DNA from: Escherichia phage IME178
DNA length: 64,000 nucleotides
Strand: one strand, 5' to 3'
Sequence record: NC_104190.1
The notes under the pieces: generated by a model
What the model was told of the DNA's origin: nothing
The model's input: the letters and a program-made list of their open reading frames with translations, nothing else
Databases searched by the model: none
Made by a program: the position numbers and the translations under genes
Part shown: positions 6,480 to 56,718 of the stretch, piece after piece
Layout of the letters: every line of letters begins with the position of its first letter
Numbering within the stretch: the stretch's first letter is position 1

Positions 6480-6890
6480 ATGACTACTCCAACTCAGTGG
6501 ACTGATGAACTGTTCGAAAAAATGTCTTCCGAATACGTTGCTCGTATGGAACAATTCCCAGAGGATGAACGTCCTGGTGTTAGCATGGAAATTGTTAGCG
6601 AAATTGCCCAGGAAAATGGTGTAACTCCGAACGGTTTTCGTATGAAGCTAACTAAAGCAGGTTTGTATATCAAGAAAGCTGCTGGCTCTGCTTCTAAATC
6701 TAGTGCATCTACTGGAGAAAAAGCTTCTGGTGGTTCTCGCACTTCTAAAGCTCAAGCTCATGCCGACCTTCGTTCAGCATTCTCTGATGCTGGCCTAGCA
6801 CCAGATTTTCTGGATGATGCAATTATCGACAAACTGACCGGTAAAGCGGCTGCTCATCTGGCAGAAGCAATCCGAGCTATCACTAAGTAA
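6480..6890 (+). CDS. A2-like paralogue (small, apparently highly expressed protein)
   Basis: 136 aa with E. coli-optimal codons; shares W(T/N)(D/E)E, EIA(Q/K), KLT(K/S)A and a C-terminal KL(T/E) helix with the 135-aa A2-like ORF at 56311..56718. Confidence 0.6.
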   Translation: MTTPTQWTDELFEKMSSEYVARMEQFPEDERPGVSMEIVSEIAQENGVTPNGFRMKLTKAGLYIKKAAGSASKSSASTGEKASGGSRTSKAQAHADLRSAFSDAGLAPDFLDDAIIDKLTGKAAAHLAEAIRAITK

Positions 6891-6926
6891 TTTTTAGATA
6901 AATCCACCAACAAAAGGAACACAGTT

Positions 6927-7223
6927 ATGACCAAAGCTGAAATTATCGCACAATGTGAAAAATTTGGTGAGTTTTATCTTCATTACGAGAAACTTCGTCA
7001 GAAAGGAACCACATACCTTCAGGGTACGATGGAATTTGATCCAGCCCAAGATAAATATCTAGCTGAGCGTATTAAACGTGAACGTATTCGTAAAGCGAAA
7101 GATGATGAGATCCTTGTCTTCTCTCGTACTAATGATAGTTTCCGTTTTATTCCTGTCGAGAAAGTCCGTCGTGTGACTAGCCTCCAATCAGAGTTAGATC
7201 GTGCTTCTCCAGTAGGCCGATAA
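6927..7223 (+). CDS. hypothetical protein
   Basis: 98-aa ORF followed by a terminator hairpin. Confidence 0.5.
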   Translation: MTKAEIIAQCEKFGEFYLHYEKLRQKGTTYLQGTMEFDPAQDKYLAERIKRERIRKAKDDEILVFSRTNDSFRFIPVEKVRRVTSLQSELDRASPVGR

Positions 7224-7233
7224 GAAACCAATT

Positions 7234-7256
7234 AGCCCCTATATGGGGCTTTTTGT
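7234..7256 (+). terminator. rho-independent terminator (AGCCCCT-ATAT-GGGGCT + T-run)
   Basis: Perfect stem followed by TTTTTG. Confidence 0.6.
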
Positions 7257-7273
7257 GTATTTGGAATATGTAA

Positions 7274-7582
7274 ATGAGCGAACAGGTAAATCAAAACTAT
7301 GAAGGACACGTTGATGACCAGTCCATCATACTTTGGGAGAAGGAGGGAGAACAAGTAAGATTAACAGTATCTGAATTTCGTGGGAATCTATACATGGGTA
7401 TTCGTTACTGGCTTCTTGATATTAATGATGAATGGTTTCCAACGAAATCTGGCTTCTCTTTTCCTTACACCCTAGAAACAACATCACAGCTTTTCTATGC
7501 GTTTACACAGATTCTTAGCGAATCTGAGGTTTTACATGAAGTACAGAAACGAGCTGAAGAACTCAAAGCCAAGAATGCCTAG
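7274..7582 (+). CDS. hypothetical protein
   Basis: 102-aa ORF; stop codon lies inside the terminator stem. Confidence 0.5.
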   Translation: MSEQVNQNYEGHVDDQSIILWEKEGEQVRLTVSEFRGNLYMGIRYWLLDINDEWFPTKSGFSFPYTLETTSQLFYAFTQILSESEVLHEVQKRAEELKAKNA

Positions 7583-7596
7583 TTCTTGGCTTTTTC
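7568..7596 (+). terminator. rho-independent terminator (GCCAAGAA...TTCTTGGC + TTTTT)
   Basis: Inverted repeat followed by T-run. Confidence 0.6.
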
Positions 7597-7609
7597 TTTA
7601 TAAATGTAT

Positions 7610-7638
7610 TTGCTTTCAACTCAGTTTTATTATATAAT
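7610..7638 (+). promoter_or_regulatory. sigma70-type early promoter (TTGCTT-17-TATAAT) with conserved ATAAATTGATGAGAGA leader
   Basis: Upstream of the ligase N-terminal ORF. Confidence 0.5.
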
Positions 7639-7669
7639 ATTTATATAAATTGATGAGAGATATAAATAA

Positions 7670-8640
7670 ATGACTAATGTAAAAGACTTTATTAAACGCT
7701 GTCAAGAAGCATATTATCAAGGTATGTCTTTAATCTCTGACGAAGAATATGATCGTCTGATTAAAAGATTTCCATTAGAAGAAGAGATCGGGCCTAAGGG
7801 TGATATTCCACATCTGTATCGTATGTATTCTTTACAGAAAGTTTATTATAATCGTGGAGATAAACCTCCGTTCAACCCGTTAGGTCAGGTAGAAACTGAT
7901 AAGTTAGATGGTTGTGCGATTTCTCTGTTATATATTAATGGAGAATTTGTTCAAGCACTAACTCGTGGTAATGGTATTCTAGGGAATGATGTCACAAGCA
8001 ACGTAAGATTGCTGAATATCCCTAAAAAGATTTCCCAAAAAGTACCTACTCAAATCACTGGTGAAGTTCTAATTACAAAAGAAGTAGAAAATAAACGTAA
8101 CTTTGCCTCTGGTGCTATTAACCTCAAAGATAGCGATGATTTCGTACAACGTATTGGGGAAGGTGGTTTAATCTTCGTTGCATATGGTATCCAGTGTTCT
8201 GCTGAATCTGTAGGTATTACAGAAGCGTACTTAAAAGATATGCTCTGGCTGGAGAATGAGACTTCTTAACAGTTGTTAATGTGCGTTCCTTCTTTAAGTG
8301 GATTCCGACGGATGGTAAAGTTGTTCGTATTAATGACAACAACAAATTCTTCCGTGAAGGCTGGACTAATAAATTTCCTCGTGGAGCATTCGCTATTAAA
8401 GAAGATGAAGAAGGCGAGATTACAACTCTTACTAAAGTTGAATGGCAGGTAGGGGCTTCTGGTAAAGTAACTCCAGTTGGTTATTTCGAATCGGTAATTA
8501 TTGATGATGCTACAATTGTTAAGGCGACTCTTAATAACGTTGATTATATTAACTCTCTTGATCTAGAGATCGGTTGCCAGATTCGAGTAATTCGTGCTGG
8601 TGGTGTAATCCCGTGCATAGTAGAGCGAGTATACGATTAA
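7670..8640 (+). CDS. NAD-dependent DNA ligase, N-terminal subunit (adenylation + OB domains); frame break near 8260-8269
   Basis: Two track ORFs (7670..8269, 199 aa, KLDG KxDG motif; 8281..8640, 119 aa) in different frames separated by 11 bp; together about 322 codons. Confidence 0.6.
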
Positions 8641-8692
8641 TATATGTAACCCTTTGCTACCCATCTACCATATAGGAATTATAAAGTGGTTA

Positions 8693-8721
8693 TTGACATT
8701 TTCGCCGCTTAGGTATATACT
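8693..8721 (+). promoter_or_regulatory. near-consensus sigma70 promoter (TTGACA-17-TATACT) inside the ligase spacer
   Basis: Followed by a 7-codon mini-ORF (MARVSKVS). Confidence 0.4.
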
Positions 8722-8785
8722 ATTATCATTCAGTTGAGGGATAGAAAGTTATGGCGAGGGTAAGCAAAGTTAGTTAAAATTGTAG

Positions 8786-8814
8786 TTGCTAAATGCTTAA
8801 ATACTTGCTATAAT
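8786..8814 (+). promoter_or_regulatory. sigma70-type early promoter (TTGCTA-17-TATAAT) with conserved leader
   Basis: Same family; leader AAATTGATAAGGAAG precedes ATG 8845. Confidence 0.5.
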
Positions 8815-8844
8815 ATTTATATAAATTGATAAGGAAGAAATTTG

Positions 8845-9615
8845 ATGAAAATCGAAATTCCAACACAATGTCCCTCTTGTGGTTCTAAGCTAGATCTTGT
8901 CAATGGACAATTATTCTGTCGTAATAAGTCCAACTGTCCAGCGCAATCAAGTAAGTTAATTGAGAACTTCTGTACAAAAATGAAGTTAAAGGGCTTTGGT
9001 CCAAAAACTATTGAGAAGCTGGAGCTGACGAAGATTTCAGAACTATTTTACCTAACCGAACAAGATTTGGTTAGAGCCGTGGGTAGCAAGGTTGCCGCTA
9101 AGTTAATTAGCGAATTAAATACTAAAGTTCGCGGAGACATTGACTTTGGTTCAGTTCTCGGTTCTTTAGGAATCCCTCTAATAGGAGAGGTTGCAGCAAA
9201 GAAATTATCCCAAAATTGCAACAGCTTCCATGATGTGAAGGCTGACGGCAAGGCTGGAGAAAACTATAAAGCCTGGCTAAATTCCCCACAAGGCAAGGAT
9301 GTTATCGAACTACCGTGGAAATTCTCAACTGGTGCTAAAGCTAAAACCGTCGTTACTGATGATTTAGTTGCCCAGCCAAATGGAATCGCGGTATGTATTA
9401 CCGGGTCTTTGCAAGACTTTGCAAATAGAACGGATGCAACAAACTATTTAGAAGGTCTAGGATATACGGTTAAGAAATCCGTTACCAAAGACGTCAAATA
9501 CCTGATCTGTGAGGATGAATCAAAACGTTCTTCCTCATCTTATAAGAAAGCCGAAACGAATGGGATAGAAATCCTGTCGATTAAAGAACTATTGGAGAAA
9601 AATAATAATGTCTAA
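8845..9615 (+). CDS. NAD-dependent DNA ligase, C-terminal subunit (Zn-finger, HhH, BRCT-like)
   Basis: CPSCGS...CRNKSNCPAQ zinc-finger motif; ORF track 8842..9615, ATG at 8845. Confidence 0.65.
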   Translation: MKIEIPTQCPSCGSKLDLVNGQLFCRNKSNCPAQSSKLIENFCTKMKLKGFGPKTIEKLELTKISELFYLTEQDLVRAVGSKVAAKLISELNTKVRGDIDFGSVLGSLGIPLIGEVAAKKLSQNCNSFHDVKADGKAGENYKAWLNSPQGKDVIELPWKFSTGAKAKTVVTDDLVAQPNGIAVCITGSLQDFANRTDATNYLEGLGYTVKKSVTKDVKYLICEDESKRSSSSYKKAETNGIEILSIKELLEKNNNV

Positions 9616-10375
9616 ACTGAACTGGAACGTAGAAGGTGTAACCGAGTCTCTGAAAGCAAAAGCCACTGCTCTGGGTGTTTCTGTAATCTCTCAAGAACAA
9701 GTAGCTGCTATCGCTGCTGAACTGGCTGCTGAAACTGGCAAAGATGTTACTGCTCGCTCTGTTGGCTCTAAACTGCGTAAAGAAGGTTTTGAAGTACAGA
9801 AAGCTAACGAAGTACAGAAATCCCCGTGGACTCCTGAGCAGGAAGCTGAACTGGTTGATTTCCTGAACGCTCATGCTGGTCAGTATACCTATGCTGAAAT
9901 CGCTGCTGCTGTAGCTGGTGGTCAGTTCGGTGCTAAGCAGGTACAGGGTAAGATTCTGAGCCTGGAAATGACCGCTTCTGTTAAGCCAACCGAAAAAGCT
10001 GCTGCTGTTCGTTCCTTCACTCCGGATGAAGAAACTGATTTTGTTAATCAGGTTGTTGCTGGTGCTACTATTGAAGCTATCGCTGCTCACTTCGGTCGTA
10101 ATATCAAGCAGATCCGTGGTAAAGCTCTGAGCCTGCTTCGTGAAGGTCGTATCGCTGCTATGCCGGTACAGGAAACTTCAAGTGCTAAAACTCGTGAAGA
10201 TTTGTTAGAAGGTCTGGATCTGGTTAACATGACTGTTGCTGAGATCGCTGAGAAAACTGGTAAGTCTGAGCGCGGTGTTAAATCTATGCTGTCTCGTCGT
10301 GGTCTGGTTGCTAAGGACTATGATGGTGCCGCTAAGCGTGCTAAACTGGATGCAAAAGCTGCGGCTGCTGAATAA
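9608..10375 (+). CDS. D5-like abundant early DNA-binding protein with four internal HTH-like repeats
   Basis: 255 aa, strongly E. coli-optimal codons; repeated module (W/F)TP(E/D)..E...V...(TYAEIAAAV/TIEAIAAHF)G....(Q/R)GK.LSL. Confidence 0.55.
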   Translation: MSKLNWNVEGVTESLKAKATALGVSVISQEQVAAIAAELAAETGKDVTARSVGSKLRKEGFEVQKANEVQKSPWTPEQEAELVDFLNAHAGQYTYAEIAAAVAGGQFGAKQVQGKILSLEMTASVKPTEKAAAVRSFTPDEETDFVNQVVAGATIEAIAAHFGRNIKQIRGKALSLLREGRIAAMPVQETSSAKTREDLLEGLDLVNMTVAEIAEKTGKSERGVKSMLSRRGLVAKDYDGAAKRAKLDAKAAAAE

Positions 10376-10392
10376 TCTGGTAAATTAAACCT

Positions 10393-10425
10393 AAGGGGAG
10401 GGGGCTATGCTCCTTCCCCTTTTTG
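10393..10425 (+). terminator. rho-independent terminator (GGGGAGGG...CCTTCCCC + TTTT)
   Basis: GC-rich hairpin and T-run directly after the D5-like stop. Confidence 0.6.
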
Positions 10426-10457
10426 CATTTAGAAGGCACGAAAGCGTGCAAAGGAGA

Positions 10458-11930
10458 ATGACCTTGTTTAACGTGCAAGCTGTAGTGTTGAAGATGCTTC
10501 TAGCTTCTGAACAGAAGCAAATAGCATTGGAAACATTCTCAAAACTGCATAAAGATCATTTTAATGACGCTTTCTCCTCAATTTACCAAGCCGTCCAGAA
10601 TTATTATAAAAAATATAACACAATGCCGTCCATTGACGCACTGATGCTTGAAGCTAATAGGAACGCCCGCCTTTCTCAAGCTCTAGTCGTCTTAGCTAAC
10701 ACTCAAATTCCAGAAGTGAGCATGGAACAGGCACTTGAAGTCCTAGAGGCTGAATATACACAGGATTTATTCCTGAAGCTTCTAGAAACAGACGTGCTTC
10801 AAGATTTAACAATGCTGGATCAGGGAGAAATTCTCAACCGAGTTGCCTCCCTTCACTTAAAATTAGAAGAGAAAGTAACGAATACTGGAAAAGTATTCAA
10901 CGCAGATAACATGCGTATTTTCCAGAGAGAAGAAGATACCAAACTGAACCTAATCGCTCTTGGTATTTGTAATGAGTTTGACGCTCAAATTGGTTTAGCT
11001 CGCACAGAAACGTTACTGCTTGGTGGTTGGCGTGGTACTGGTAAATCCATTATCTGTTCAAACATACAGGTTCAGCAATATTTGAATGGAGATATTGCTC
11101 CATACTTCTCAATTGAGATGAAAGAACATGAAGTATTTAGACGTAATCTAGCCATGTTAGCTGGTGTATCCGCACTAGCAATGCGTAATAATACTCTAGA
11201 AGGTGCAGCTCTGCTGAGATTAGCCAGAACTAGAGCTAGAATGTTTAATGGCGGTGAAGAGCTTTTCGATAACTTCGTTAAACAGTACACAATGGCTAAG
11301 ATGAGTGATTTCTACGATATGGAGAGTAAACTAATAGAAGGGTATGAACTACATACTCCTATGATTATCGTTTATGACCCTGAACTGTCCATTACAACAG
11401 TTGATGTAGAATTAAATAAATTAGTTGCTAGATATGGTGATAAAGTTACAGTAGCTTTATTGGACTATATTAACCAAACCCGACTTCCAGACTCTAAAAC
11501 CATTGATATGTATGACTGGAAAGAACAGATGGTTGTTAGCTCGTCTTTCAAATCTATCTGCCAGAAACATAACGTGGCTGGCGTAGCTCCTTACCAGATC
11601 GATCAAGATGGTAGAACACGTATGTCAAAGGGTATTCTTGATTCCGCAGACATGGCTGCTAATCTTAATGCTGCAAAAGCTGATAATGGTCAAGGTGCTA
11701 TTATGTTTGACTTCGTTAAGACTCGTTCTTCTGATAGCGTGAAGTTTATGCCTAAAATGAACTGGGAAACCTTGCGGATGGATAACACTACCAACCTAGC
11801 GATGGAAGATATATCTCAAATGGAAGCTGAGTTCGTTATCCCTATTGAGAAGGATAAGCCGGCTCAACCTAAACGTGCTAAGAAAGACAAAACCGAAAAT
11901 TCAACAGGTGAACAGGCCAGCGATATATGA
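10458..11930 (+). CDS. DnaB-like replicative DNA helicase
   Basis: Walker A GGWRGTGKS and FSIEM motif; track ORF starts at 10407 inside the terminator, ATG 10458 follows RBS AAGGAGA. Confidence 0.65.
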   Translation: MTLFNVQAVVLKMLLASEQKQIALETFSKLHKDHFNDAFSSIYQAVQNYYKKYNTMPSIDALMLEANRNARLSQALVVLANTQIPEVSMEQALEVLEAEYTQDLFLKLLETDVLQDLTMLDQGEILNRVASLHLKLEEKVTNTGKVFNADNMRIFQREEDTKLNLIALGICNEFDAQIGLARTETLLLGGWRGTGKSIICSNIQVQQYLNGDIAPYFSIEMKEHEVFRRNLAMLAGVSALAMRNNTLEGAALLRLARTRARMFNGGEELFDNFVKQYTMAKMSDFYDMESKLIEGYELHTPMIIVYDPELSITTVDVELNKLVARYGDKVTVALLDYINQTRLPDSKTIDMYDWKEQMVVSSSFKSICQKHNVAGVAPYQIDQDGRTRMSKGILDSADMAANLNAAKADNGQGAIMFDFVKTRSSDSVKFMPKMNWETLRMDNTTNLAMEDISQMEAEFVIPIEKDKPAQPKRAKKDKTENSTGEQASDI

Positions 11931-12818
11931 GTAGAATAACAGAACTACTTGATCTGAAAGGCATTGAATATAAAGACACAGGTGGGGACATCCTCATCTG
12001 TTGTCTCAATCCAGATCATGACGATAAACACCCAAGTTTGCGTATTGATCCTGAAACAGGTATTATGCACTGCTTGAGTTGTGGCTTCGGTAAAGGTATA
12101 CCGAGCATTTACCATTATTTTAATGAGACTCAGTACCGACAGTCCCCAAGGCTATCGCAAGTACGTAAAAAGATTTCAGAGATTAGGAATGGGTCAACGA
12201 ATCTTGCAATTCCTGAATCTGCTTACCTTTTCGAAGGTGATTTCCGAGGTATAAGTTCTAAGACCTTGAAGAAATATTTTGCTTTCCAACACCAAGCAGA
12301 CTGGGAAGGCAGAATTGTATTCCCAATCACAGATGCTGTTGGACGCAATATCCTATTTTTGGGTCGTTCTATAAACAGTTCTGCCCCTCCTAAATACTTA
12401 GTAAAACCAAAACAAGTTTCACCACCAATTTTTCCTGTACGATATAATACCCCAATTCTTATTCTAGTTGAAGGTATCTTTGATATGCTGAATCTAGAGG
12501 ATAATGGTATAGACTATGCTTCTTGTTGCTTCGGTACACATCAGTTTACTTCAGATAACATTGCAGATAAGTTTAGTCCGTATATTATTGCTGGTGTTAA
12601 AGTTGTTGTTATCTTACTAGATAATGATGCTTCTGGTAATAAAGCTGCACAAGCACTGGCTAAGCTAATTCGTACAAAAAACGCGTTTAACACCTGTAGT
12701 TGCTAACTTTCTTCTGCCTGAAGGTAAAGACCCAGGTGACTTAAGTAAAGAAGAAATTGATATGTTAGCAAAACGTATTGAAATTTTAGTTGCTGAATCG
12801 CTTAAAGATTTGGTATAA
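11927..12818 (+). CDS. DnaG-like DNA primase (zinc-binding + TOPRIM); frame break at A6 run near 12676-12681
   Basis: CCLNPDHDDKHPSLRIDPETGIMHCLSCGFGKG zinc motif; track ORF ends 12706 but the +1 frame continues with LPEGKDPGDL (TOPRIM-like) to stop at 12818. Confidence 0.65.
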
Positions 12819-12867
12819 TAGTCCTAAATAACTGAGGAGCTACTATGGAATATGTATATATATTTAT

Positions 12868-13176
12868 GTGGATGTTCCAGTGTATGATAGTATAACACAC
12901 AAAGAGGTTAAACTAGAGCGGTTTACAACACTGGAGTCCCTTAATAAACGAAAGAATTTCCATTTATTTGGTGATCCTAAATTACCTGCATCTTATATTT
13001 ACTTTAAAGTAAAAGATACAGGTCAAGAGGTATACCTAACATATGATTGGGCTGTTGTAGAAAATACTGAGCAATCTATGAAAGCGCTAGATGCTTTTCT
13101 GCGTATAGATGAAGAATTTCGGGTACTAGAAAAGCAGCGCAATGAAATGCGTAAATTACTTCACACCTATAAATAG
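12868..13176 (+). CDS. hypothetical protein
   Basis: 102-aa ORF with alternative start; an RBS-preceded ATG at 12845 is in another frame, so the start is uncertain. Confidence 0.4.
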   Translation: MDVPVYDSITHKEVKLERFTTLESLNKRKNFHLFGDPKLPASYIYFKVKDTGQEVYLTYDWAVVENTEQSMKALDAFLRIDEEFRVLEKQRNEMRKLLHTYK

Positions 13177-13179
13177 TAT

Positions 13180-17897: not shown

Positions 17898-18182
17898 ATG
17901 CTTACAGAGCCTGATGCTCACCAATTATTGGTCGGTTCCTCATTCATTTTGAATGAATCAACAATAGTTGATAATCCAAATAAATTGTCTAATAGACAAC
18001 TGGCAGAATATCTAGGAATTTTAAGTCTACGAAATTATGCCGAATACAAGTTTACAAACGATCCTAGTTTGGACATACAATATGTTCCAGTATGGATACC
18101 ACGTTTAGTAATCGACACTAACCCACTAATCGCAATTAACAAATCGAAATTAATCTTTAAAGAGGAAATAAAATATGGCTAA
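17898..18182 (+). CDS. hypothetical protein
   Basis: 94-aa ORF between the promoters and the SSB-like gene; weak RBS. Confidence 0.35.
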   Translation: MLTEPDAHQLLVGSSFILNESTIVDNPNKLSNRQLAEYLGILSLRNYAEYKFTNDPSLDIQYVPVWIPRLVIDTNPLIAINKSKLIFKEEIKYG

Positions 18183-18948
18183 GTCTTGGGGCGAAACTAC
18201 TGGCGGTTCTAACGATAAAATCGAATTCCTGAAGTTCAACAACGGTATCACTCGTGTTCGTATCGTTTCTGGTGTTCTTCCACGTTATGTCTATTGGCTG
18301 ACTAATAAAGAGGGTAATGTAGCTCCTTTCGAATGTCTCCGTTTTAACCGTGACAAAGAGAGCTTTGTTCGTGGTAAAGCTGATCCGGTTCATGAGATGG
18401 GCTTTTTCGAGAAAGAGCTGGATAAAGACGGTAATCGTGTTCCGCTGAAACCGAAGAAAAACTATATCGCTTTTGTTATCGACCGTTCTGATAACAAACT
18501 GAAAGTAATGGAAGTCAAGGCTACTATTCTGAAAGGCATCCAGTCTATCATGAAGCAGTTGAATCTGGCAACTCCGTTTGATATTGATATTTCTATCGAG
18601 AAAAAAGGTAAAGGTTTCGATACTGAGTATGATGTACAGCAGATTGCTGCTATGCAGTTCCAGATTAAGCTGCAAGATCCCAACAGTGCAGAATCTAAGC
18701 AATACGCTGCAGATGTAGATCTGATCGGTGAAGCTATGTGTGATGGAGATGGCGACATCATTAAGTTCGAAAAAGTTCCTTCTCTGGAACAAACTTATCC
18801 GGTTCCTACCTATGAAGAGCAGAAAGAAGCAATTCAAGCCTTCATGGAGGGTCGTGAGAATAAAGATGATGATGCCAAATCTGGTAATAGCAATGCAGGC
18901 TCCCAGAAAGGTATTGACACAGAAGCTGCAAGCGATCTGGACGACTAA
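18175..18948 (+). CDS. putative single-stranded DNA-binding protein (acidic C-terminal tail)
   Basis: 257 aa with optimal codons; C-terminus DTEAASDLDD is acidic as in phage SSBs; strong terminator follows. Confidence 0.5.
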   Translation: MAKSWGETTGGSNDKIEFLKFNNGITRVRIVSGVLPRYVYWLTNKEGNVAPFECLRFNRDKESFVRGKADPVHEMGFFEKELDKDGNRVPLKPKKNYIAFVIDRSDNKLKVMEVKATILKGIQSIMKQLNLATPFDIDISIEKKGKGFDTEYDVQQIAAMQFQIKLQDPNSAESKQYAADVDLIGEAMCDGDGDIIKFEKVPSLEQTYPVPTYEEQKEAIQAFMEGRENKDDDAKSGNSNAGSQKGIDTEAASDLDD

Positions 18949-43142: not shown

Positions 43143-44519
43143 TTAAGATGCAGCGTAAGTACCGGATACAACGCCGTTATTAAAGTAACGTTGCAGGTTA
43201 ACACGCTGGGTAACGTAGTACGCGTCACGCTGTTTACCAGCTTGGCGCTCACGTTCAACAGTAACAGCACGCTGACGCGGCATTACAAAGTTATCTTTAT
43301 AAACGATAACTGCGAATTCTGCGGAAGCAGCTTTAGCAGGGAAGTATTCAGAAACTACAACTGGCAGACCATAAATACGACCAACCTGACCTTGCAGTTT
43401 AACAGCATCGTTACCAACCTGTGCAACATCCTGCCATTCTTCATCTTCCAGCAGATCGTAATAAGCATCCATAGATACGATCAGTACTAGTTTGCTAAGT
43501 TTCAGACCATGACGGCCCAGTTTACGACGCAGTTTAGAAATAGTTTTAGCAGTTACTAATACAGAACCATCAGCTTTAGCCTCGGTAACAACCTTAGCAC
43601 TATCTTCGCTAGCAAGGGTCAGCAGACCTTTCGGCTTACCAGAACCATCACCAGTCATGAAAGCTTCTTCGATAGAAACAGCGTGTGCTTCAATCAGGCG
43701 TTTACGCAGCAGAGGCAGCAGAGAGAAGATTGCATCTTCTTCAGTTTCATCAGTAATGAAGGACTTAGCAGCTAATTTGTAAGTACTGAAATGAATTTCA
43801 GTCAGAGCACCTTTAACTTCTTCACCAGTAGTTGCATCAGTACCATAAGTAGAAGCAGCAACCCAAGTAGCTTTACCAGCATCTGGTTCAACTAGCATAG
43901 TAAGAATCTTACTAGACATCGGCAATTCTTCGAACAGTGCACCAACTACCAGCTCTTTCTGCAGATCACGAATGATACGCTGGGAGAAAATAGTTTCATA
44001 GTTTTCACTAGAAACCTGAACTGAAGAAGAGGTGTTTACAGCTTTAAGGTGATTCTGACCATGTTCAGTTTCGAATACGCCTTTTTCCATTACATAAGAT
44101 AGCAGAACTAGTTTTTCAACTTCATCTTCGAAAGCTTCCTGAGTACCATACAGTGCTTTAGCTACGCTATCACCGACGAAGGAACGTCCTTCACGAGCTG
44201 CCAGTAGAGATTTGATTTCGTCCTGAAGACCAACAATAGTTTCCTGTTGTTTTTCTACAGTCTGTGCAAACAGTTCTGCGCTCTTTTTAGATTTTTCATC
44301 CAGGGATTTAACCAGTTCCAGAGCTTCTTCTAGCTTCTGACGATCTTCGCCAACTGCTTTAGAAACCAGATCATTCATACGAGCCAGTTCTTTTTCTTCC
44401 TGCTCTTTACGCATACGTTCAGCTTCAGCAGCTTTCTGAGCAGCGGTCAGACCTTCCAGAGATTTAGCCAGATCACCCAGACCAAGTTCTTCTTTCAGCT
44501 TATTAATATCAATAGTCAT
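43143..44519 (-). CDS. major capsid protein (pb8-like) with N-terminal scaffolding delta domain
   Basis: 458 aa (the length of T5 pb8); coiled-coil N-terminal ~150 aa, HK97-fold-like remainder; strongly optimal codons. Confidence 0.85.
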   Translation of the reverse strand: MTIDINKLKEELGLGDLAKSLEGLTAAQKAAEAERMRKEQEEKELARMNDLVSKAVGEDRQKLEEALELVKSLDEKSKKSAELFAQTVEKQQETIVGLQDEIKSLLAAREGRSFVGDSVAKALYGTQEAFEDEVEKLVLLSYVMEKGVFETEHGQNHLKAVNTSSSVQVSSENYETIFSQRIIRDLQKELVVGALFEELPMSSKILTMLVEPDAGKATWVAASTYGTDATTGEEVKGALTEIHFSTYKLAAKSFITDETEEDAIFSLLPLLRKRLIEAHAVSIEEAFMTGDGSGKPKGLLTLASEDSAKVVTEAKADGSVLVTAKTISKLRRKLGRHGLKLSKLVLIVSMDAYYDLLEDEEWQDVAQVGNDAVKLQGQVGRIYGLPVVVSEYFPAKAASAEFAVIVYKDNFVMPRQRAVTVERERQAGKQRDAYYVTQRVNLQRYFNNGVVSGTYAAS

Positions 44520-49221: not shown

Positions 49222-49231
49222 ATTTCCTCCT

Positions 49232-50989
49232 TTAGGTAAGGCGTTGAACTGTTACTCTTAATCTAGGTAGGAAAACTGCACTACCTAAACTTACGTGCAT
49301 AACTACCCCTAACTCTACATTTCCGTTCCCCAGATTTTTAGCAGTGTATATAAAACTATTTCTACTTAGGGCATTGTTAGGTGTGTATCTAAAAGCAGAT
49401 GTAGTATGAAAAGGTACTAAATACCCTACTGGTAGTGTTAAAATCTGGTGGAATATCGCGTCTCCATTGCTATAACTATATGCTCTTCTTCCTTGCACTT
49501 GAAACACACCGTTATTCCATGTATTAGCAGGAACACCTGCACAGTTAAGATTACCTGATATAACTTCAGTGGTAAGAATTACTGTAGCATTGCCACCCGG
49601 TATACCTAGCCCAATAGTTGATAAACCAACGTATCTATCTCCTGTTCCCGGGTAGCTAGGAGTAATATCATCTCCCATATAAGAACTACCTACATTTCCA
49701 CCAAAAAGTCGTAATGGAACTGCTGAAGGCCCCCAAACAACCCCGTGTTCATTACCGATAGTATTATCATTAGAGTTTACGTACCATTGCTTACCAGCTC
49801 CGAATTTGTAAATACTAATTTGAGACTTAGCCCCTCCATAGTCTACAGGAGACCATAAACTCCCGTTACTAGAACCTACAAGTTCACACCTTGCAGTGGT
49901 ATCCCCAAAGGCCCCAGTGTACGCTGCATTATTTCCAATATATTCCATATCTGGTCTATAACCTAAGTTACCGAAAGCGTTCTGGTTAATAAACTTGTAT
50001 CCAGTATTGGGAAGACTAACCCCTTTAATTATGAAATTAGAAGGAGATATAAGAATATCTGAACCAGTAAAAGGATTACCAGAGATACTCATACCACCAT
50101 TTGAGTATCTTAAATTCAAAACGTACCAAATAACTTTAGTAGGGGTTATGTTATACCAATCCTGTAATATTGTAGCGTTACCAGATTGGTTAGCTAAATT
50201 AGTTGTAGAACCCCTACAAACAAATCTGTTACCTCCATCATGATACATAGTATTTACATTACCAGGAAGACCTTGTCTTACCCCACCATACCCACGTATG
50301 TTAGAGTTACAAACATAAAACCAATCGTGCCCTCTGTGTGCTGATCCTAAAGGAGACATCCATCCTGGGTCCCAGTAATATTGGTTATTACCATCTATAG
50401 GTACTGTACTACTATTAGTAGGGAATCCTAACTGTGCAAAAGCTTCTGCAACAGTAATACCTACTGGAGCTCCTGCACCTGGCCTAACTATACCATGATA
50501 CGTACTATGTAAGGTAGTACCCCCTGTACCATTCCTAGAAATAGATTCTTCATGTCCTATAGATGGATTATAGTTATATGTACCAGATGCCAGGCTATTA
50601 CCAAATGCAAATCCACTAGTCTGGGAAACACTAGCAAAAGATCTAAAAGGATCTGCTTGAGTGGCAACTATAGTTTGACCCACCTTACTCTGAGTACCAT
50701 TAAGAAAAGCCCTATGAGTACCATTTATCTCAATAGCAGTTAGTATAACTCTACCAGGATCGTTAGATTTAATATTTATTATGTCAGCGGGCATTTGACA
50801 TACAAAAAACCCATTACCGGCATCACCTAACCCAGACTCATAAGTACCATCAACTAGGACAAATGGCATGTCACTATGAAAAATACTATTGGCATTTGGA
50901 CTATAGTGACGATTAATGTCACCACCAGATTCAGTATTTAAAGATAGTACGGTCTTACCATCGCTATATTTTCCAGCGAAAAAACCCAT
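49232..50989 (-). CDS. receptor-binding tail protein (pb5-like)
   Basis: 585-aa Gly/Asn/Ser/Thr-rich protein encoded divergently from a lipoprotein gene, the arrangement known for T5 oad(pb5)/llp. Confidence 0.6.
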
Positions 50990-51014
50990 ATAATCTCCTA
51001 TTATAAAAATGTAT

Positions 51015-51043
51015 TTGCTTTCATCCCTCTATTTTGCTATAAT
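51015..51043 (+). promoter_or_regulatory. sigma70-type early promoter (TTGCTT-17-TATAAT) with conserved ATAAATTAGAAATGGAGAGA leader, driving llp
   Basis: Same promoter family as the replication genes, in the divergent pb5/llp intergenic region. Confidence 0.5.
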
Positions 51044-51074
51044 AGATTCATAAATTAGAAATGGAGAGATAAAT

Positions 51075-51341
51075 ATGAAAAAGTTTGTGATTGCACTAGT
51101 TGCCGCAGTTATGTTATCTGGTTGTGCACCTGCTCCCAAACCATTTTGTACTGGATTTGTAAAATCTTTTGGGGGTGCGGGAGAAGAACATTATGGCCTC
51201 AAGGTTCAAAAAGTTCGTATTAAGGGAGATCGCTTCCCAGTAGTACAACTCCGTACTAAATTTGGGTGGTGGGATCTCAGTCAGTTTGACCTTAAATATG
51301 GTGATTGTAAATTTAAACTAGAGCAATCTAACTACCTGTAA
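51075..51341 (+). CDS. llp: Llp-like lytic-conversion lipoprotein
   Basis: 88 aa with signal peptide and lipobox LSGC; divergent from the receptor-binding gene. Confidence 0.65.
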   Translation: MKKFVIALVAAVMLSGCAPAPKPFCTGFVKSFGGAGEEHYGLKVQKVRIKGDRFPVVQLRTKFGWWDLSQFDLKYGDCKFKLEQSNYL

Positions 51342-51518
51342 TTAGTATAAAGCAAAAAGACATCTAAGTAAACTAAATTTTTTATTTTTTGGACGGTATA
51401 TTGGCAGAAACCACTATGTAAGAAAAGTAGAAGTCCTTCTAGGAAGTCACAAGCATGGTTGGTTGTGCACAAATTATAAAATAATTTAAAATACCACATT
51501 TATTGGAGCATGAAAGAT

Positions 51519-51647
51519 ATGTCAAATAAAAGAAAGAACAGGCGTGGAGAAGTTTACGAAGCGTGGATTAATATTTACGGATTTGGTTTTGTATTATTCC
51601 TAATCTTCGTAGGTTTTTGGTTAGCAGCTATGGCGGGGTGGATCTAA
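51519..51647 (+). CDS. small single-pass membrane protein (42 aa)
   Basis: MSNKRKNRRGEVYEAW then hydrophobic helix; below the ORF-track length cutoff. Confidence 0.4.
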   Translation: MSNKRKNRRGEVYEAWINIYGFGFVLFLIFVGFWLAAMAGWI

Positions 51648-51802
51648 TGGAATGGGTAATTATTGGCATATTCGTCTTATTGATACTTATCTTTGTAGGC
51701 TTACGTGTAATAGATACCTCTATAACCCAAACAGAGATTAAATTAATGCAGTTGAGCAATAGATTATCTAGAATTGAGACTTTATTAGAGGAGCGTAAAT
51801 AA
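51647..51802 (+). CDS. small membrane protein, MEWVII family member 1
   Basis: MEWVIIGIFVLLILIFVG...RIETLLEERK; ATG overlaps previous stop. Confidence 0.5.
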   Translation: MEWVIIGIFVLLILIFVGLRVIDTSITQTEIKLMQLSNRLSRIETLLEERK

Positions 51803-51909
51803 TGGAATGGGTAATTATTGCACTACTAGGGATTGTGATTATCGGGCAGTGTATTTTAGATAATCATCTAGCTAGAATTGAAACCTTATTATTGGAGAAA
51901 CGTAAATGA
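51802..51909 (+). CDS. small membrane protein, MEWVII family member 2 (35 aa)
   Basis: MEWVIIALLGIVIIGQ...RIETLLLEKRK; paralogue of the preceding ORF. Confidence 0.45.
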   Translation: MEWVIIALLGIVIIGQCILDNHLARIETLLLEKRK

Positions 51910-52100
51910 TGGAAGCGGCAATTACACTAATGGTAATATTAGTTTGGATAATCTTTATTGCCTCTCGTATTGTGTACGTTCGCCTAAAAACTCTAGAAGC
52001 CCAGGTAAAACAACAACAAGTTGCTCTAGAAAAGCTAGTATTACTCCAACGTTGTGATAGCACCCGTATTCTGCAAATTGAGAGGGAATTAGATGTTTAG
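51906..52100 (+). CDS. small membrane protein (64 aa)
   Basis: N-terminal TM helix then coiled charged tail; ATGA overlap. Confidence 0.5.
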   Translation: MMEAAITLMVILVWIIFIASRIVYVRLKTLEAQVKQQQVALEKLVLLQRCDSTRILQIERELDV

Positions 52101-52338
52101 TATTGTAATTGCTTTTATTATCGGGATACTCGCGGGAGTTTTCGGAACAACTGCGGCAATTAACAAGCATCGGGAATATATTGCGGGAGTGACGCGGGAG
52201 ATTGCGGAAAGGGAGCGGAAGTTTGACGAGAAACGTGCGGAGTTTGAACGAGAATGGTCGGATGGTTCTCGGGCGTCGCGGAAGAGATTTCGCATGTCAG
52301 AATCAGGAGACAAGCCGGTAGACAGGAGAAGCTCATGA
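52093..52338 (+). CDS. small membrane protein with charged C-terminal tail (81 aa)
   Basis: TM helix MFSIVIAFIIGILAGVFG then Arg/Glu-rich tail. Confidence 0.5.
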   Translation: MFSIVIAFIIGILAGVFGTTAAINKHREYIAGVTREIAERERKFDEKRAEFEREWSDGSRASRKRFRMSESGDKPVDRRSS

Positions 52339-52538
52339 AAGAATTCGGGCAGTTTAAAATAACCCAAGAAAAACTAGAAAAGATGGGTATCACCCAAAAG
52401 ATGCTACAGGTTTTTCCTAAGTCTTCGGAAATTCCAGAAGGATTTATGAGGTTTTATGAAGCTATAGAGTACATTAATAATCTTGTTAAAACGGACCCTA
52501 CGTGGCAATCAGTTCTCAAGCAGTTAGCCCATAAATAG
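52335..52538 (+). CDS. hypothetical protein (67 aa)
   Basis: ATG 52335 six nt after AGGAG (track 52254..52538). Confidence 0.45.
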   Translation: MKEFGQFKITQEKLEKMGITQKMLQVFPKSSEIPEGFMRFYEAIEYINNLVKTDPTWQSVLKQLAHK

Positions 52539-52695
52539 CGCTAATTACCAATCCTCCAAATTTCATAAGATTACACATGGAGGTGTGTCCAGTGGCCCCC
52601 CAGATGAGAATGAGTCTCATTACCGCCCGGTACTTAGCAGGCTAATAGTCACGGCATGTTACCATTACACACCGTGACTATTTCAACTTTAATTA

Positions 52696-53430
52696 TTACG
52701 CAACTTTTAATTTCTCAATATATTGTTGCGGGCTGCAACTATATTCTGCGCGTTCTTCCTCGGTCATACCTTCCCAGCATAATTTCAAACGATCAGCTAG
52801 GAACTGATAATCATTATCATCGTCGAGAGATTCATCAATAAAGGTTTCACCTATCAATGCCACGCCGATTGATAGAATATCATTAACGGCTTGTGCGTCC
52901 AGCGTTTTAAATCCGTATGACGCTGCCGCTGATAACACGCCTTTATGATCATCAATCATTGTAAATTCAGCGTTCGGATATAACTGTTTAAATAACTCAA
53001 AATAATAAGATTTATATACTGCGTCTTTACTATGGTAAATTTCGCTAACCTTATCAGCTTTAAAATATTTATGCAGTGTATCACGGGAAAATACGCGAAT
53101 ATTGCTTTTATCACGACCGCGTAAACCTTGTTTGCGCAGGAAGTAATAATCTGATTTGCTCATTAGTCGAGCGGTACAAATAATGTTTAAAGTATTTGCG
53201 TCATTCATGCACTGGCGCATGTATTCAACTAATGGTAATAATGTATCTTGCATTATTAAATGATGTTTGCAGGCTTCATTTTTATATTTATTTAAATCTA
53301 AATTGCCCTCATTATCAAAGCAAGGCGCTACACGATGGAAAGAATTAACGATAGTGCCGTCTAAATCCCAAATCATAACGCGGGAAATATGCGGGAAGCT
53401 GCGGGAAATGTTCATAATAGCTTTATTCAT
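52696..53430 (-). CDS. dmp: 5'-deoxyribonucleotidase (dmp-like, HAD family)
   Basis: 244 aa with HAD motif I WDLDGT; same length as T5 Dmp; lies in the pre-early block. Confidence 0.7.
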   Translation of the reverse strand: MNKAIMNISRSFPHISRVMIWDLDGTIVNSFHRVAPCFDNEGNLDLNKYKNEACKHHLIMQDTLLPLVEYMRQCMNDANTLNIICTARLMSKSDYYFLRKQGLRGRDKSNIRVFSRDTLHKYFKADKVSEIYHSKDAVYKSYYFELFKQLYPNAEFTMIDDHKGVLSAAASYGFKTLDAQAVNDILSIGVALIGETFIDESLDDDNDYQFLADRLKLCWEGMTEEERAEYSCSPQQYIEKLKVA

Positions 53431-53516
53431 TTGTTACGTTCTCCATTTAAGGGATTAGATTAATTCAATCTAGCCCACTAATTATATTTTATTAGTGGGC
53501 TATGTTCAATTAACTA

Positions 53517-53915
53517 TTAGAACGCCAGACCAAAAGCAAGAGCATCAGCGATAAAACTAACATCCTCACCTGATACATGGGAACGAATACCCGCGCAGGT
53601 ATATACTTTTGCGCTGATCAATTGATCATCGAGGCAAGCGAGGCAAGGCGCGACAACTGCAAAGGCTAGACCGGATTTTACGGCGTCAATGATAATCGTT
53701 TCTTGTTTCACTGTGTCAACATAAACACCTGCGGCCTTAATGTAGCTACTTGCGCGGCCTTGCGCATAGGCAAAGGTAGTAACCTGCAAAGCGTCATTGA
53801 AATCTAACAGATCATCAATAACGTGCCCCGCCTCGACGTGGTAACGTTCACCATTAGAATAAACCAGAACAATGGAAGACTGAGCGCGGTCAAATGGAAT
53901 ATTTTGCTTTTTCAT
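53517..53915 (-). CDS. hypothetical pre-early protein
   Basis: 132-aa ORF flanked by intergenic stem-loops. Confidence 0.45.
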   Translation of the reverse strand: MKKQNIPFDRAQSSIVLVYSNGERYHVEAGHVIDDLLDFNDALQVTTFAYAQGRASSYIKAAGVYVDTVKQETIIIDAVKSGLAFAVVAPCLACLDDQLISAKVYTCAGIRSHVSGEDVSFIADALAFGLAF

Positions 53916-53953
53916 GTTTATAAAACTCCAATTAGTTTAATAATGGATTTAAT

Positions 53954-54211
53954 TTATTTGATAATAATCTGCATCTGGTACGGCGTTAATTCACCGTTTA
54001 CGGGTAAATTATTATCGCTTAGCCACTCATAAAAAGCGCTATCGTCATCAAAAGGAACAACATCATTATCACGGGAATCGACGGAAATAATGCCATCAGT
54101 ATTAGTTTTGGCGGCTAGGATAGGCCCGAAGCTGTAAACTTTATCGGATTCCATTTCATCCGGTGAAATGAATACTTTTTCGTCCAATGTTTTGGGTAAT
54201 GTAACTTTCAT
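53954..54211 (-). CDS. hypothetical pre-early protein (acidic)
   Basis: 85-aa ORF. Confidence 0.45.
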   Translation of the reverse strand: MKVTLPKTLDEKVFISPDEMESDKVYSFGPILAAKTNTDGIISVDSRDNDVVPFDDDSAFYEWLSDNNLPVNGELTPYQMQIIIK

Positions 54212-54267
54212 TTTTTGTGACTCCTGTAATAGCGGCTGTATTTCAAGCCGCTAGGGAAATAATTTAA

Positions 54268-55932
54268 TTACGCAAAGAATTTACCATTCTTAAAGTCAAT
54301 CAAAGTGCGTTGACCGTTTGCATAGGTAATTAAATGCGTTTGCGTCCAGCTTGACGCGCCAACGTTGTAACCCATATCCAGACTACCCGCTACGCCAGCG
54401 GTATATACGCCACCGTAAATGCTGGCGGTATGGGTGTGCCCCGTGTTCAATTTACCCAATTTCTTAAATTGTTTCGGGTTGCCACGGCTGCCGTTAATGC
54501 CGTTGTGACCGTGTACGCCGCATTCAATACCTGCAATCTTGAAAGATTGGTCAGTGGTTAGGAAAATGGCGTTAAACTCACAACCTGCAACCTTGCGCAA
54601 CGCATAATCTAGCACGTTGAAGGTATCGTCATGCTCACCGATTGCCGCATAGATTGCAGCATTCAGGCGGTGATACAGTTCCGCGTTCGCGGGATCGTCT
54701 TTGATGTTAGCATTACGATCATCAAGCCAACGGGATAACGCTAGATCGTGATTTGATTCAACAATGATTGTTTGACTAAAATCACGTTCCATTGACTCCA
54801 GCACGCGACCGGTATCGATAAGGTCATCCAGAACTTTATCACGTCCGGCGGCATACTGTTTCGCTAGGAATACACCCGAAGCGCGGTTATGATGATTGCG
54901 CGATGTAAAATCGTGAACGTCATGGATAAACTGATATTTTGGTTTAAGAATATCAAGCAAGCTATTTTCGCCAGCCCAAGATGCGGCGGCGCACTCTTCA
55001 TCTAATTTTTCGGCGTGAATATCACCATACTGCAAGCCTAAAACATGCCCCGATGTCTCATAGCATCCGGCAGGAGTAGCGCACACATTCAGATCATAAA
55101 ATACCCCGCTTTCGTCCATCGTTTCGAGCTGGCGTACAAAAAATTCCCCGTCCTCGTCGAACTCAACAATCAGCGCACCGAAGTTATGCAGTGCTTCCGC
55201 TTTTTGTCCTGCTTTCTGCTGAATGTAGTTTTTGAGCGTTGCCGTTCCGGTTGAGTACATACGGCGCACTACTTCACCTTTTAAAGCTGGTACGCTTTCA
55301 GCGGTAATTTTAGCGTGACCAATTGCCAGACCTTCAATATTTAAAGCCGTTGCAGTTTCTGCGAATCCAGAAAGCGGATAATCTGCGGTAGGCAAAACAT
55401 TAATTTCAGCCATGAAAGCAAAACGGCGGTTATTTAAAAACACGTTTTTGCTGCAAATATATTTATCAAACGCAGAATCATATTTGATTCCGTCTGCACC
55501 TTCTCCATTTTGGAAGCCGTTTTTATTATAAATATACTTAGAAACAAGCAAATCGGCACCGATATATTCAGCGAATTTTTCCAGACTTGCTAAAAAGTTT
55601 TTATGCGGGAAAGTATTATTCTGAATCGACGTAATAATAAAACGTTTACCCTGTTTTACTTCCCATTGCTCAACCGTACTAGAAACAATCCCAGCCGCTT
55701 CGGGGCGCTCGTCGTTTTTAATGGCTTTTGCTACTTTTGCCGCTTTCGGTTTAGCTGGTTTGTTTGCTTCCAGCCAATCACAAATGGCGGTGGAATGTTT
55801 CGTTGTATCGTAGACTGCTTTTGATATATCGTCGCAGACCTCCAGTTTAGTAGCGCGCAGACGTTTACCATAGAAATTAAAGTCAGCGGCCATTTTCAGA
55901 ATAACGGTTTGTTTTTCTGCGGAAATAATCAT
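54268..55932 (-). CDS. A1: A1-like pre-early protein (metallophosphoesterase-type nuclease)
   Basis: 554 aa (T5 A1 is 556 aa); metallophosphatase motifs GDIHAE, GVHGHNG, GHTHT. Confidence 0.7.
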   Translation of the reverse strand: MIISAEKQTVILKMAADFNFYGKRLRATKLEVCDDISKAVYDTTKHSTAICDWLEANKPAKPKAAKVAKAIKNDERPEAAGIVSSTVEQWEVKQGKRFIITSIQNNTFPHKNFLASLEKFAEYIGADLLVSKYIYNKNGFQNGEGADGIKYDSAFDKYICSKNVFLNNRRFAFMAEINVLPTADYPLSGFAETATALNIEGLAIGHAKITAESVPALKGEVVRRMYSTGTATLKNYIQQKAGQKAEALHNFGALIVEFDEDGEFFVRQLETMDESGVFYDLNVCATPAGCYETSGHVLGLQYGDIHAEKLDEECAAASWAGENSLLDILKPKYQFIHDVHDFTSRNHHNRASGVFLAKQYAAGRDKVLDDLIDTGRVLESMERDFSQTIIVESNHDLALSRWLDDRNANIKDDPANAELYHRLNAAIYAAIGEHDDTFNVLDYALRKVAGCEFNAIFLTTDQSFKIAGIECGVHGHNGINGSRGNPKQFKKLGKLNTGHTHTASIYGGVYTAGVAGSLDMGYNVGASSWTQTHLITYANGQRTLIDFKNGKFFA

Positions 55933-56022
55933 AGTAATAAAACTCCATTAAAGGGATTAGATTAATAATGGCAATATTGCCAAATATAACGCCTCAAATA
56001 ATAGGCGTTATAATTTGCAACA

Positions 56023-56220
56023 TTAATTTAAAGGCACTAGGCTAGAACTAACACCACAAGCAACGGCAGCGATAAAACAAAGCAGACCTAAACGTTTTGC
56101 TAACTTAGATTTACGTTTAAAATAATACGAATCTAAATCATTTTGAAAATAAGCGAACAATAATGAGGCCGCCATAATAAACAAGCCTAGAATCAAAGAT
56201 TCAGTAGGGAAGAAAACCAT
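56023..56220 (-). CDS. small two-helix membrane protein
   Basis: 65 aa, two hydrophobic segments. Confidence 0.45.
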   Translation of the reverse strand: MVFFPTESLILGLFIMAASLLFAYFQNDLDSYYFKRKSKLAKRLGLLCFIAAVACGVSSSLVPLN

Positions 56221-56310
56221 TTTTAAAACTCCTGATTTAAGGGAAGAAAATAACTATCGCTAAACAGTTATATTATTGCCCCCTCACTAGAAGGGGGCAA
56301 GGTATAACTA

Positions 56311-56718
56311 TTATTCGCCTGCGGCTTGTTTTACTTCATCAGCAACGCCTAACAATTGCGCTACTGCGTCCAGCGTTTCAAGTTTTGCACTTTCAAGGCT
56401 TGCCAGATCATCGGCGTCTTTGATAATACCGGAATCGATAGCGTGTTTTGCAATTACTCGCACATAGTGAGCTTTACGCACAGAGCTACCGCCGCCAACT
56501 TTACGCGGCTTATCGCTTTTTTGATAGGCTTTTGCACTGGTCAATTTTGAGCGAACGGATACAGGGGAAGCCGCGCCTACTGCTTTTGCAATCTCTTTCA
56601 GGCCGTCGCTATTTGCGAAATCTAAACCGTTTTCATTGATTAACTGCTGGTACATAGAAACAGCTTTCTGAGTGTTTTCTTCGTTCCATGCGAATTTTGC
56701 GGTTTTAGCGTTAGTCAT
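56311..56718 (-). CDS. A2: A2-like pre-early DNA-binding protein
   Basis: 135 aa, adjacent to A1 as in T5; paralogous to the ORF at 6480..6890. Confidence 0.55.
   Translation of the reverse strand: MTNAKTAKFAWNEENTQKAVSMYQQLINENGLDFANSDGLKEIAKAVGAASPVSVRSKLTSAKAYQKSDKPRKVGGGSSVRKAHYVRVIAKHAIDSGIIKDADDLASLESAKLETLDAVAQLLGVADEVKQAAGE

Follow-up and report, generated by a model that had tools for sequence, protein, structure and literature searches.

In bacteriophage T5, replication and late transcription both require D5, a DNA-binding protein made abundantly in the early phase. GcrA of Caulobacter, which is contained in PDB entry 7ye1, is laid out as a DNA-binding domain, a linker and a helical domain. 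The pre-early protein A2 of T5 is a DNA-binding dimer for which a complex with A1 has been reported (bioRxiv 10.1101/866236); it is essential according to the T5 literature, but its mechanism was still termed unknown in a 2026 preprint, and how A2 helps to bring in the remaining 92% of the T5 genome has been an open question for more than 50 years. The stretch of DNA considered here (the window) comprises 64,000 nucleotides of Escherichia phage IME178 (NC_104190.1) and covers the right-hand portion of a genome like that of T5 (Tequintavirus/Epseptimavirus-type), with early replication genes on the plus strand at about 1-23.6 kb and late genes on the minus strand at 23.6-51 kb. A first-pass annotation had proposed that the 136-residue product of 6480..6890 (+), in the early replication block, is a paralogue of the 135-residue A2 protein encoded by 56311..56718 (-); these coordinates and lengths are exact. 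The early protein has 98-100% identity with those that bear the name D3 in T5-like phages (T5.113 in T5); the first-pass annotation had not recognized it as the product of the classical gene D3. D3 and A2 share a homologous N-terminal domain, predicted to be a helix-turn-helix (HTH), and a conserved linker motif, and they probably descend from one ancestral gene.

Taken as two sequences alone, D3 and A2 are of borderline similarity: BLASTP aligned them with 26% identity over 104 residues at an E-value of 0.006 (0.05-0.14 in a second run), and their Smith-Waterman score (z = 4.2) was reached by 9 of 5000 shuffles. Profile-profile comparison with HHalign gave a probability of 90% (E = 1.6e-6) for close D3 against close A2 orthologues, the two sets having been built separately from two database searches, 98.4% (E = 9.5e-15) for 30 diverse D3-like against 30 diverse A2-like sequences, and 98.8% (E = 1.1e-16) for the N-terminal domains only. 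Judged by these profiles, the case for homology is decisive. The motifs quoted in the first-pass annotation are present (W7-T-D-E, SEIAQENG and MKLTKAG in D3; W11-N-E-E, KEIAKAVG and SKLTSAK in A2), and those of the N-terminus and centre are real homologous features according to the comparison of N-terminal domains. Hidden Markov models (HMMs) of the D3-like and A2-like N-terminal domains were also run against the 202 open reading frames (ORFs) of the window, where the best non-self match of the first was A2 (E = 4.6e-8) and that of the second was D3 (E = 7.3e-8), followed by D5 (about 1e-4), all other ORFs having E-values of at least 0.09.

The significant profile alignments take in a motif in the linker, GGxRTSKA of D3 being aligned with GGGSSxRKA of A2. 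In the orthologue alignments, residues G84, G85, R87, T88, S89, K90 and A91 of D3 are invariant or nearly so, and D69, R72, K73, G75, G76 and R81 of A2 are invariant, as is K82, the first residue of its C-terminal domain. This linker motif ranks among the most conserved stretches of both proteins. The C-terminal domains have conserved features of their own, namely a K-L-T-G-K-A-A motif that is invariant in the D3 subfamily and residues S107, L108 and E109 that are conserved in the A2 subfamily. HMMs of the C-terminal domains each found only their own protein among the window ORFs.

HMMER, run exhaustively with a profile of both subfamilies combined, recovered 418 clusters (50% identity) at E ≤ 0.001, nearly all of 110-160 residues and matched over their full length. 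The best 150 of these 418 clusters split cleanly into 106 that are D3-like and 44 that are A2-like, each scoring 46-235 bits with the HMM of its own subfamily and 1-36 bits with the other. Both window proteins match phrog_1725 (D3 with E = 4.7e-50 over residues 1-136, A2 with E = 3.4e-52 over residues 5-128); since this PHROG holds both subfamilies, independently built subfamily profiles were tested as well. The precomputed Pfam assignment PF26822.1 is found on 67 of 67 A2 hits and on 3 of 52 D3 hits (P0044, P0047 and P0051, which are divergent orthologues), and is not found on the clusters nearest to the D3 of the window. A Pfam scan of 34 family members found no significant family, only scattered sub-threshold HTH matches. 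The distance between the subfamilies is bridged, for example, by a Vibrio-phage D3 that begins with W-N-E-E-N-T-A, like A2, and is 32% identical over 122 residues to A2 from a near relative among the Vibrio phages; some BLAST alignments across the subfamilies extend over 105-130 residues. Nevertheless, D3 should not be called an A2: its C-terminal domain lacks the S-L-E region of the A2 type, and its gene is not, like that at 56311..56718, a neighbour of A1 and dmp within the pre-early (terminal-repeat) region. With 135 residues, the A2 of the window is like that of T5 and its closest relatives; in most database clusters (Epseptimavirus-type) the protein has 138 residues, the three extra ones lying near the N-terminus.

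Models of both proteins predicted with AlphaFold2 (mean confidence, pLDDT, of 75 for D3 and 84.5 for A2) consist of a three-helix N-terminal domain, a low-confidence Gly/Ser/Lys linker, and a C-terminal domain of three to four helices. In both, the first helix of the C-terminal domain begins at the linker motif, and the two C-terminal domains agree in being helical, in size and in position. The agreement of predicted folds that the first-pass annotation had set as a check was borne out by reciprocal Foldseek matches in BFVD: for the D3 model, two D3-like proteins were followed at ranks 3-4 by A2 proteins of Vibrio phages (probability 1.00 and 0.98), and for the A2 model, the D3-like protein A0A679DSY2 came at rank 5 (probability 0.99), after Vibrio-phage A2 proteins and fragments. 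The Foldseek alignments between D3 and A2 cover whole chains. The linker motif has pLDDT below 50 despite its conservation, as expected if this segment folds only upon binding to DNA or to a partner.

The best solved structural neighbour of the N-terminal domain is the DNA-binding domain of Caulobacter GcrA (PDB 5yiu), and the sequence of that domain (PDB 7ye1) matched both subfamily profiles over its whole length with a probability of 64-67% (67% for D3). When the profiles were searched against all PDB sequences, neither a solved relative nor GcrA was returned, and the Pfam GcrA model had no match at E ≤ 10 among the 34 family members. As for Myb domains, the Pfam model Myb_DNA-bind_6 matched one of 19 A2 sequences (E = 0.17, below threshold) and no D3 sequence, and only the first tryptophan of the Myb tryptophan signature is conserved in the D3 and A2 alignments. 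The N-terminal domain of A2 and D3 is therefore best described as a predicted GcrA/Myb-like HTH, membership in the GcrA family not being established. The C-terminal domains of D3 and A2 matched neither GcrA nor any solved chain.

The same kind of HTH module is found in D5, which encodes four tandem repeats of it. Repeat 1 matched the A2-like and D3-like N-terminal profiles with probabilities of 96-97% and E-values of 4e-10 to 6e-9 (96.7% and 4e-10 for the A2-like profile), repeat 3 matched both with 92.5-93%, and repeat 4 matched the D3-like profile with 95.4% and the A2-like profile with 64%; compared with one another, the repeats gave probabilities of 59-95% in five of six pairings. Residues 204-230 of D5 score above the Pfam cut-off for Sigma70_r4_2, besides weaker HTH and Myb matches, and D5 is annotated in the T5 record AY543070 as required for late transcription and early shut-off. 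T5-like phages thus have three important proteins (A2, D3 and D5) built on one module. Two metagenomic A2-like proteins, P0124 (207 residues) and P0133 (205 residues), have two tandem N-terminal HTH copies before a single linker motif and C-terminal domain, an architecture intermediate between A2 with one HTH copy and D5 with four. Residues 79-113 of the D2 helicase have a weak match to HTH_28 (E = 2.4e-4, below the Pfam cut-off), and the same stretch is the next-best match of the D3-like N-terminal HMM (E = 0.09), and the helicase itself may contain an HTH.

T5-like relatives carry the same pair of genes, as the first-pass annotation had asked to be checked: tblastn found D3 in 887 phage records and A2 in 894, with matching counts by host genus (D3 and A2, respectively: Vibrio, 350 and 356; Salmonella, 267 and 271; Klebsiella, 81 and 81). 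Vibrio phages (Ermolyevavirinae) have both genes in T5-like contexts, which indicates that the duplication predates the family Demerecviridae. D3 evolves more slowly than A2, which is much more variable among close relatives: 432 of the 887 D3 records, versus 185 of the 894 A2 records, are at least 95% identical. Narrower A2-like alignments searched against IMG/VR recovered almost only isolate genomes.

The two genes have fixed and different neighbourhoods. D3 lies between the D2 and ligase genes, in a block of D2, T5.114, PC4-like, ligase and D5 genes, in all loci examined. Among 69 distant IMG/VR loci with about 45% identity to D3, in which contig ends limit the counts, the D3-like gene is accompanied by D2 in 62, the PC4-like gene in 61, ligase in 58 and D5 in 37, and a T5.114 homologue is directly 3' of it in 62 of 67. 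The ORF 3' of D3 in these distant loci was considered as the PC4-like gene, an identification that was rejected in favour of T5.114. A2, for its part, has A1 and dmp beside it at all the distant loci examined, among them those of Vibrio phages and one metagenomic contig with permuted gene order. The first-pass annotation had raised the possibility of a duplicated module; beyond the single gene this fails, neither A1 nor dmp having a counterpart beside D3. T5.114 was considered as a counterpart of A1, which would have made A2-A1 and D3-T5.114 a duplicated pair, and was rejected, the T5.114 homologue having no similarity to A1 or to any other protein of the window.

D3 and the T5.114 homologue of the window make up one unit, from promoter to terminator. 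The promoter at 6394..6422 (TTGCTT, a 17-nt spacer and TATAAT) differs very little from the sequence labelled promoter P-N 26 in the T5 record AY543070, so that D3 is indeed under an early promoter; it was missed by a generic promoter scan because of its -35 hexamer, TTGCTT, and was located by way of the annotated T5 record. The terminator at 7234..7250 agrees in position with one annotated in the same record. The start codon of D3 is preceded by a ribosome-binding site, AAGGAA, 9 nt 5' of the ATG, and that of A2 by TAGGAG. The promoter-like sites of the A2 operon are TTGACA-16-TAAAAT (11 of 12 matches) at 57432..57405 and TTGACA-17-TAAGAT at 57298..57270. Host-optimal codon usage, also claimed in the first-pass annotation, is evident from the codon adaptation index (CAI) of 58 window ORFs, calculated with E. 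coli weights from the Sharp and Li table: the five highest values belong to D5, 43143..44519, 18175..18948 (0.538), D3 (0.526) and A2 (0.470), in that order. From its size and position, 43143..44519 is inferred to encode the major capsid protein.

As to importance for infection, a T5 knockdown screen by CRISPRi-ART (PMC11879866), in which "Fit" means that knockdown lowered phage fitness, listed only 17 Fit genes, including A1, A2, D3, D5 and T5.114. D2 is a bipolar helicase, and D2 amber mutants make no DNA (PMC3632103).

A2 and D3 probably, although by no means certainly, go back to a single small DNA-binding protein whose gene was duplicated before the Demerecviridae diversified, with the HTH and linker for DNA and the C-terminal domain for a stage-specific partner. 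The layout common to both is a predicted N-terminal three-helix HTH, a flexible basic Gly/Ser linker with a Gly-Gly...(Arg/Ser)-Lys-Ala motif, and a small helical C-terminal domain. The shared N-terminal domain and linker motif would bind phage DNA, while the C-terminal domain, diverged beyond recognition yet invariant in each subfamily, would mediate self-association and docking to the partner. A2, made from first-step DNA, would serve A1 in the pre-early phase; D3, made abundantly from the strong early promoter P-N26, would probably be an equivalent DNA-binding adaptor for the early replication or DNA-handling machinery, its most likely clients being its operon partner T5.114 and the D2 helicase. 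As to the related function later in infection that the first-pass annotation had suggested, the two proteins probably share a way of binding DNA and not a role in second-step transfer, because they differ in their subfamily-specific C-terminal domains and in their fixed neighbours (A1 and dmp for A2, D2 and T5.114 for D3).

Several results weigh against this explanation. HHalign profiles of the C-terminal domains only gave a probability of 0.5%, so there is no detectable sequence similarity in this part of the proteins, and the likeness in a C-terminal helix to which the first-pass annotation had pointed is dropped as evidence. In consequence, the case for paralogy of the whole proteins, as opposed to a shared N-terminal domain, is that they agree in length, in architecture and in where the linker motif lies. 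Comparisons across the two families gave low global TM-scores (0.37-0.44), which is attributed to the flexible linker joining two domains. Scans of D3 and A2 against Pfam (a copy without PF26822) and NCBIfam found no matching model, and neither D3 nor A2 was recovered in preparations of RNA polymerase from T5-infected cells (PMC7472727).

The alternative to be taken most seriously, although it is the less probable account, is that a mobile HTH module was grafted onto two unrelated C-terminal domains, making A2 and D3 domain relatives and not whole-gene paralogues. The lack of relationship between the C-terminal profiles is what such an origin predicts, as is the failure of each C-terminal HMM to find anything but its own protein, and the module does occur repeatedly, four times in D5 and twice in P0124 and P0133. 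Grafting does not, however, account for the equal length and identical domain order of the two proteins, or for the presence of the GG...(R/S)KA motif at the same place after the HTH, inside the significant alignment, where the first C-terminal helix starts in both models; the BLAST alignments across the subfamilies and the whole-chain Foldseek alignments likewise extend past the module.

It is unlikely that A2, D3 and D5 are GcrA-like cofactors of host sigma-70 RNA polymerase, with the HTH on promoter DNA and the C-terminal domain on sigma-70, which set the pre-early, early and late programme of T5. The GcrA DNA-binding domain is the best solved neighbour of the N-terminal domain of A2 and D3 and is spanned entirely by the profile matches, GcrA has the same plan of DNA-binding domain, linker and helical domain, and D5 contains an HTH of the Sigma70_r4 type besides its annotated part in late transcription and early shut-off; moreover, the switching of temporal classes in T5 is unexplained in the literature (PMC7472727). 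But the RNA polymerase from T5-infected cells held A1, T5.026 and a capsid fragment and not A2 or D3 (PMC7472727), A2 mutants are defective in DNA transfer and not in host or pre-early shut-off, and the negative results with the Pfam GcrA model and with both C-terminal domains also argue against such a role. More doubtful by a shade is the specific series in which A2 (pre-early), D3 with T5.114 (early) and the four-repeat D5 (early-to-late switch) would be phage-specific GcrA-like cofactors that work one after another on phage DNA or on the sigma-70 transcription machinery of the host; if it were true, second-step transfer and temporal switching in T5 would both depend on one duplicated DNA-binding module.

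That D3 is a later-expressed functional copy of A2, continuing or backing up its work with A1 in second-step transfer or end processing, is very improbable. The DNA-binding domain and linker motif are common to both and the timing would fit, A2 being pre-early and D3 early, but A2 is essential and D3 is Fit, and because each is required the two are not redundant. Furthermore, their C-terminal domains are subfamily-specific and each invariant, D3 is never beside A1 but locked in the D2-ligase-D5 block, and the subfamilies have been cleanly separate since before the family diversified. Similarity by chance or composition between two small helical proteins rich in Ala, Lys and Ser, as the weak BLASTP statistics of both runs might suggest, is refuted by the profile and fold tests (profile-profile E-values of 1e-15 to 1e-16, reciprocal HMM matches among the window ORFs, reciprocal fold matches and the independent grouping in PHROGs).

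Common ancestry of A2 and D3, as favoured above, was already implied by PHROGs and automatic annotation, both proteins being listed as "DNA binding protein", phrog_1725, in the CRISPRi-ART gene table (PMC11879866), and since PHROGs already groups them the finding is a modest one. The searchable T5 literature contained no paper discussing the relationship of A2 and D3 or a GcrA-like fold for A2. What is new here is the predicted GcrA-like fold, the four related repeats of D5 and the conserved D3-T5.114 operon. The result is real and useful to T5 biology but unsurprising in kind, an unremarked relationship within small phage HTH proteins, and the gain is incremental, no new biochemical principle having been demonstrated. 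With respect to A2, the paralogy points to the common GcrA/Myb-like HTH and linker motif as the suggested DNA-binding part and to the differing C-terminal domain as the suggested source of partner specificity. For D3 it offers a first structural hypothesis and flags T5.114 as a likely partner, and A2, D3 and the four D5 repeats form a natural comparison set for mutagenesis, domain swaps and structural work.

The features of the window that bear on D3 and A2 are collected in Table 1. Some further genes may be mentioned. Just 5' of A2, 56817..57068 (-) encodes an 83-residue homologue of T5.007 with a full-length match to Pfam DUF7177 (E = 9.8e-42); it also adjoins A2 in Klebsiella and Pectobacterium phages, was not detected in Vibrio or Proteus-type loci, and is dispensable in T5 (2026 preprint). 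The gene with the third-highest CAI, 18175..18948 (+), has 774 nt encoding 257 residues and from its length is probably the homologue of T5 D11, a Fit gene marked "Ambiguous" in the CRISPRi-ART table (PMC11879866). An antisense ORF of 82 residues inside D3, 6494..6742 (-), has tblastn matches in 37 related loci, which are a shadow of the conservation of D3 and not evidence of a gene.

Table 1. Features of the window related to D3 and A2 (aa, amino acids; positions in nucleotides of the window).
Feature	Position	Strand	Basis or remark
D2 helicase gene, conserved neighbour 5' of D3	5413..6117	+	phrog_3611, E = 3.8e-128
Sigma-70 early promoter 5' of D3, homologue of T5 P-N26	6394..6422	+	TTGCTT, 17-nt spacer, TATAAT
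D3 gene, 136 aa	6480..6890	+	Probable early paralogue of A2; orthologues named D3
D3 N-terminal three-helix domain (predicted GcrA/Myb-like HTH), aa 6-66	6495..6677	+	Model helices 9-23, 28-46, 50-59
D3 flexible Ser/Lys/Gly linker, aa 67-89, with the conserved motif GG-x-R-T-S-K-A at its end	6678..6746	+	pLDDT <50 at residues 68-86
D3 C-terminal helical domain with invariant K-L-T-G-K-A-A motif, aa 90-136	6747..6887	+	Model helices 90-103, 113-118, 121-135
T5.114 homologue, 98 aa, second gene of the D3 operon	6927..7223	+	PHROG match (phrog_3696)
Intrinsic terminator ending the D3-T5.114 unit	7234..7250	+	Hairpin AGCCCC-TATAT-GGGGCT, then T run
D5 gene, 255 aa, four tandem HTH repeats	9608..10375	+	phrog_323; repeats related to the A2/D3 N-terminal domain by profile
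A1 gene, conserved neighbour and known partner of A2	54268..55932	-	phrog_1745 "DNA transfer protein", E = 1.9e-244
A2 gene, 135 aa	56311..56718	-	Pre-early DNA-binding protein for second-step transfer; named A2 in close relatives
A2 C-terminal helical domain (S-L-E motif), aa 82-135	56314..56475	-	Model helices 82-95, 102-110, 113-123, 126-132
A2 linker with near-invariant D-x-P-R-K-V-G-G-G-S-S-x-R-K-A motif, aa 69-81	56476..56514	-	pLDDT <50 at residues 74-76
A2 N-terminal domain (predicted GcrA/Myb-like HTH), aa 9-68	56515..56694	-	
Two strong sigma-70 promoter-like sites 5' of the T5.007-A2-T5.005-A1-dmp pre-early operon	57270..57432	-	Sequence match

Compared with known systems, A2 and D3 differ from Myb/SANT domains in lacking the regularly spaced tryptophan triad, Pfam Myb matches being sporadic and sub-threshold. 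They resemble GcrA in having W-T/N-x-E at the start of helix 1, I-A-x-x-L/V-G in helix 2 and R-x-x-V/L-x-x-K in the putative recognition helix, and in the common plan of a DNA-binding domain, a flexible linker and a small helical domain, but they carry an insertion of 12-14 residues between helices 1 and 2, and neither C-terminal domain resembles the sigma-70-interacting domain. D5 shares the HTH module with A2 and D3, lies in the same early block as D3, has the top CAI of the window and is likewise Fit in T5, but it has four tandem HTH repeats instead of one, without the GG...(R/S)KA motif and without a C-terminal domain of either type. Between themselves, A2 and D3 differ in the C-terminal domain, with its K-L-T-G-K-A-A motif in D3 and S-L-E in A2, and in setting, D3 being early, outside the terminal repeat and never beside A1 or dmp, whereas A2 is pre-early; they are alike in the predicted N-terminal HTH, the linker motif, size, three-part architecture, high expression signals and importance for infection.

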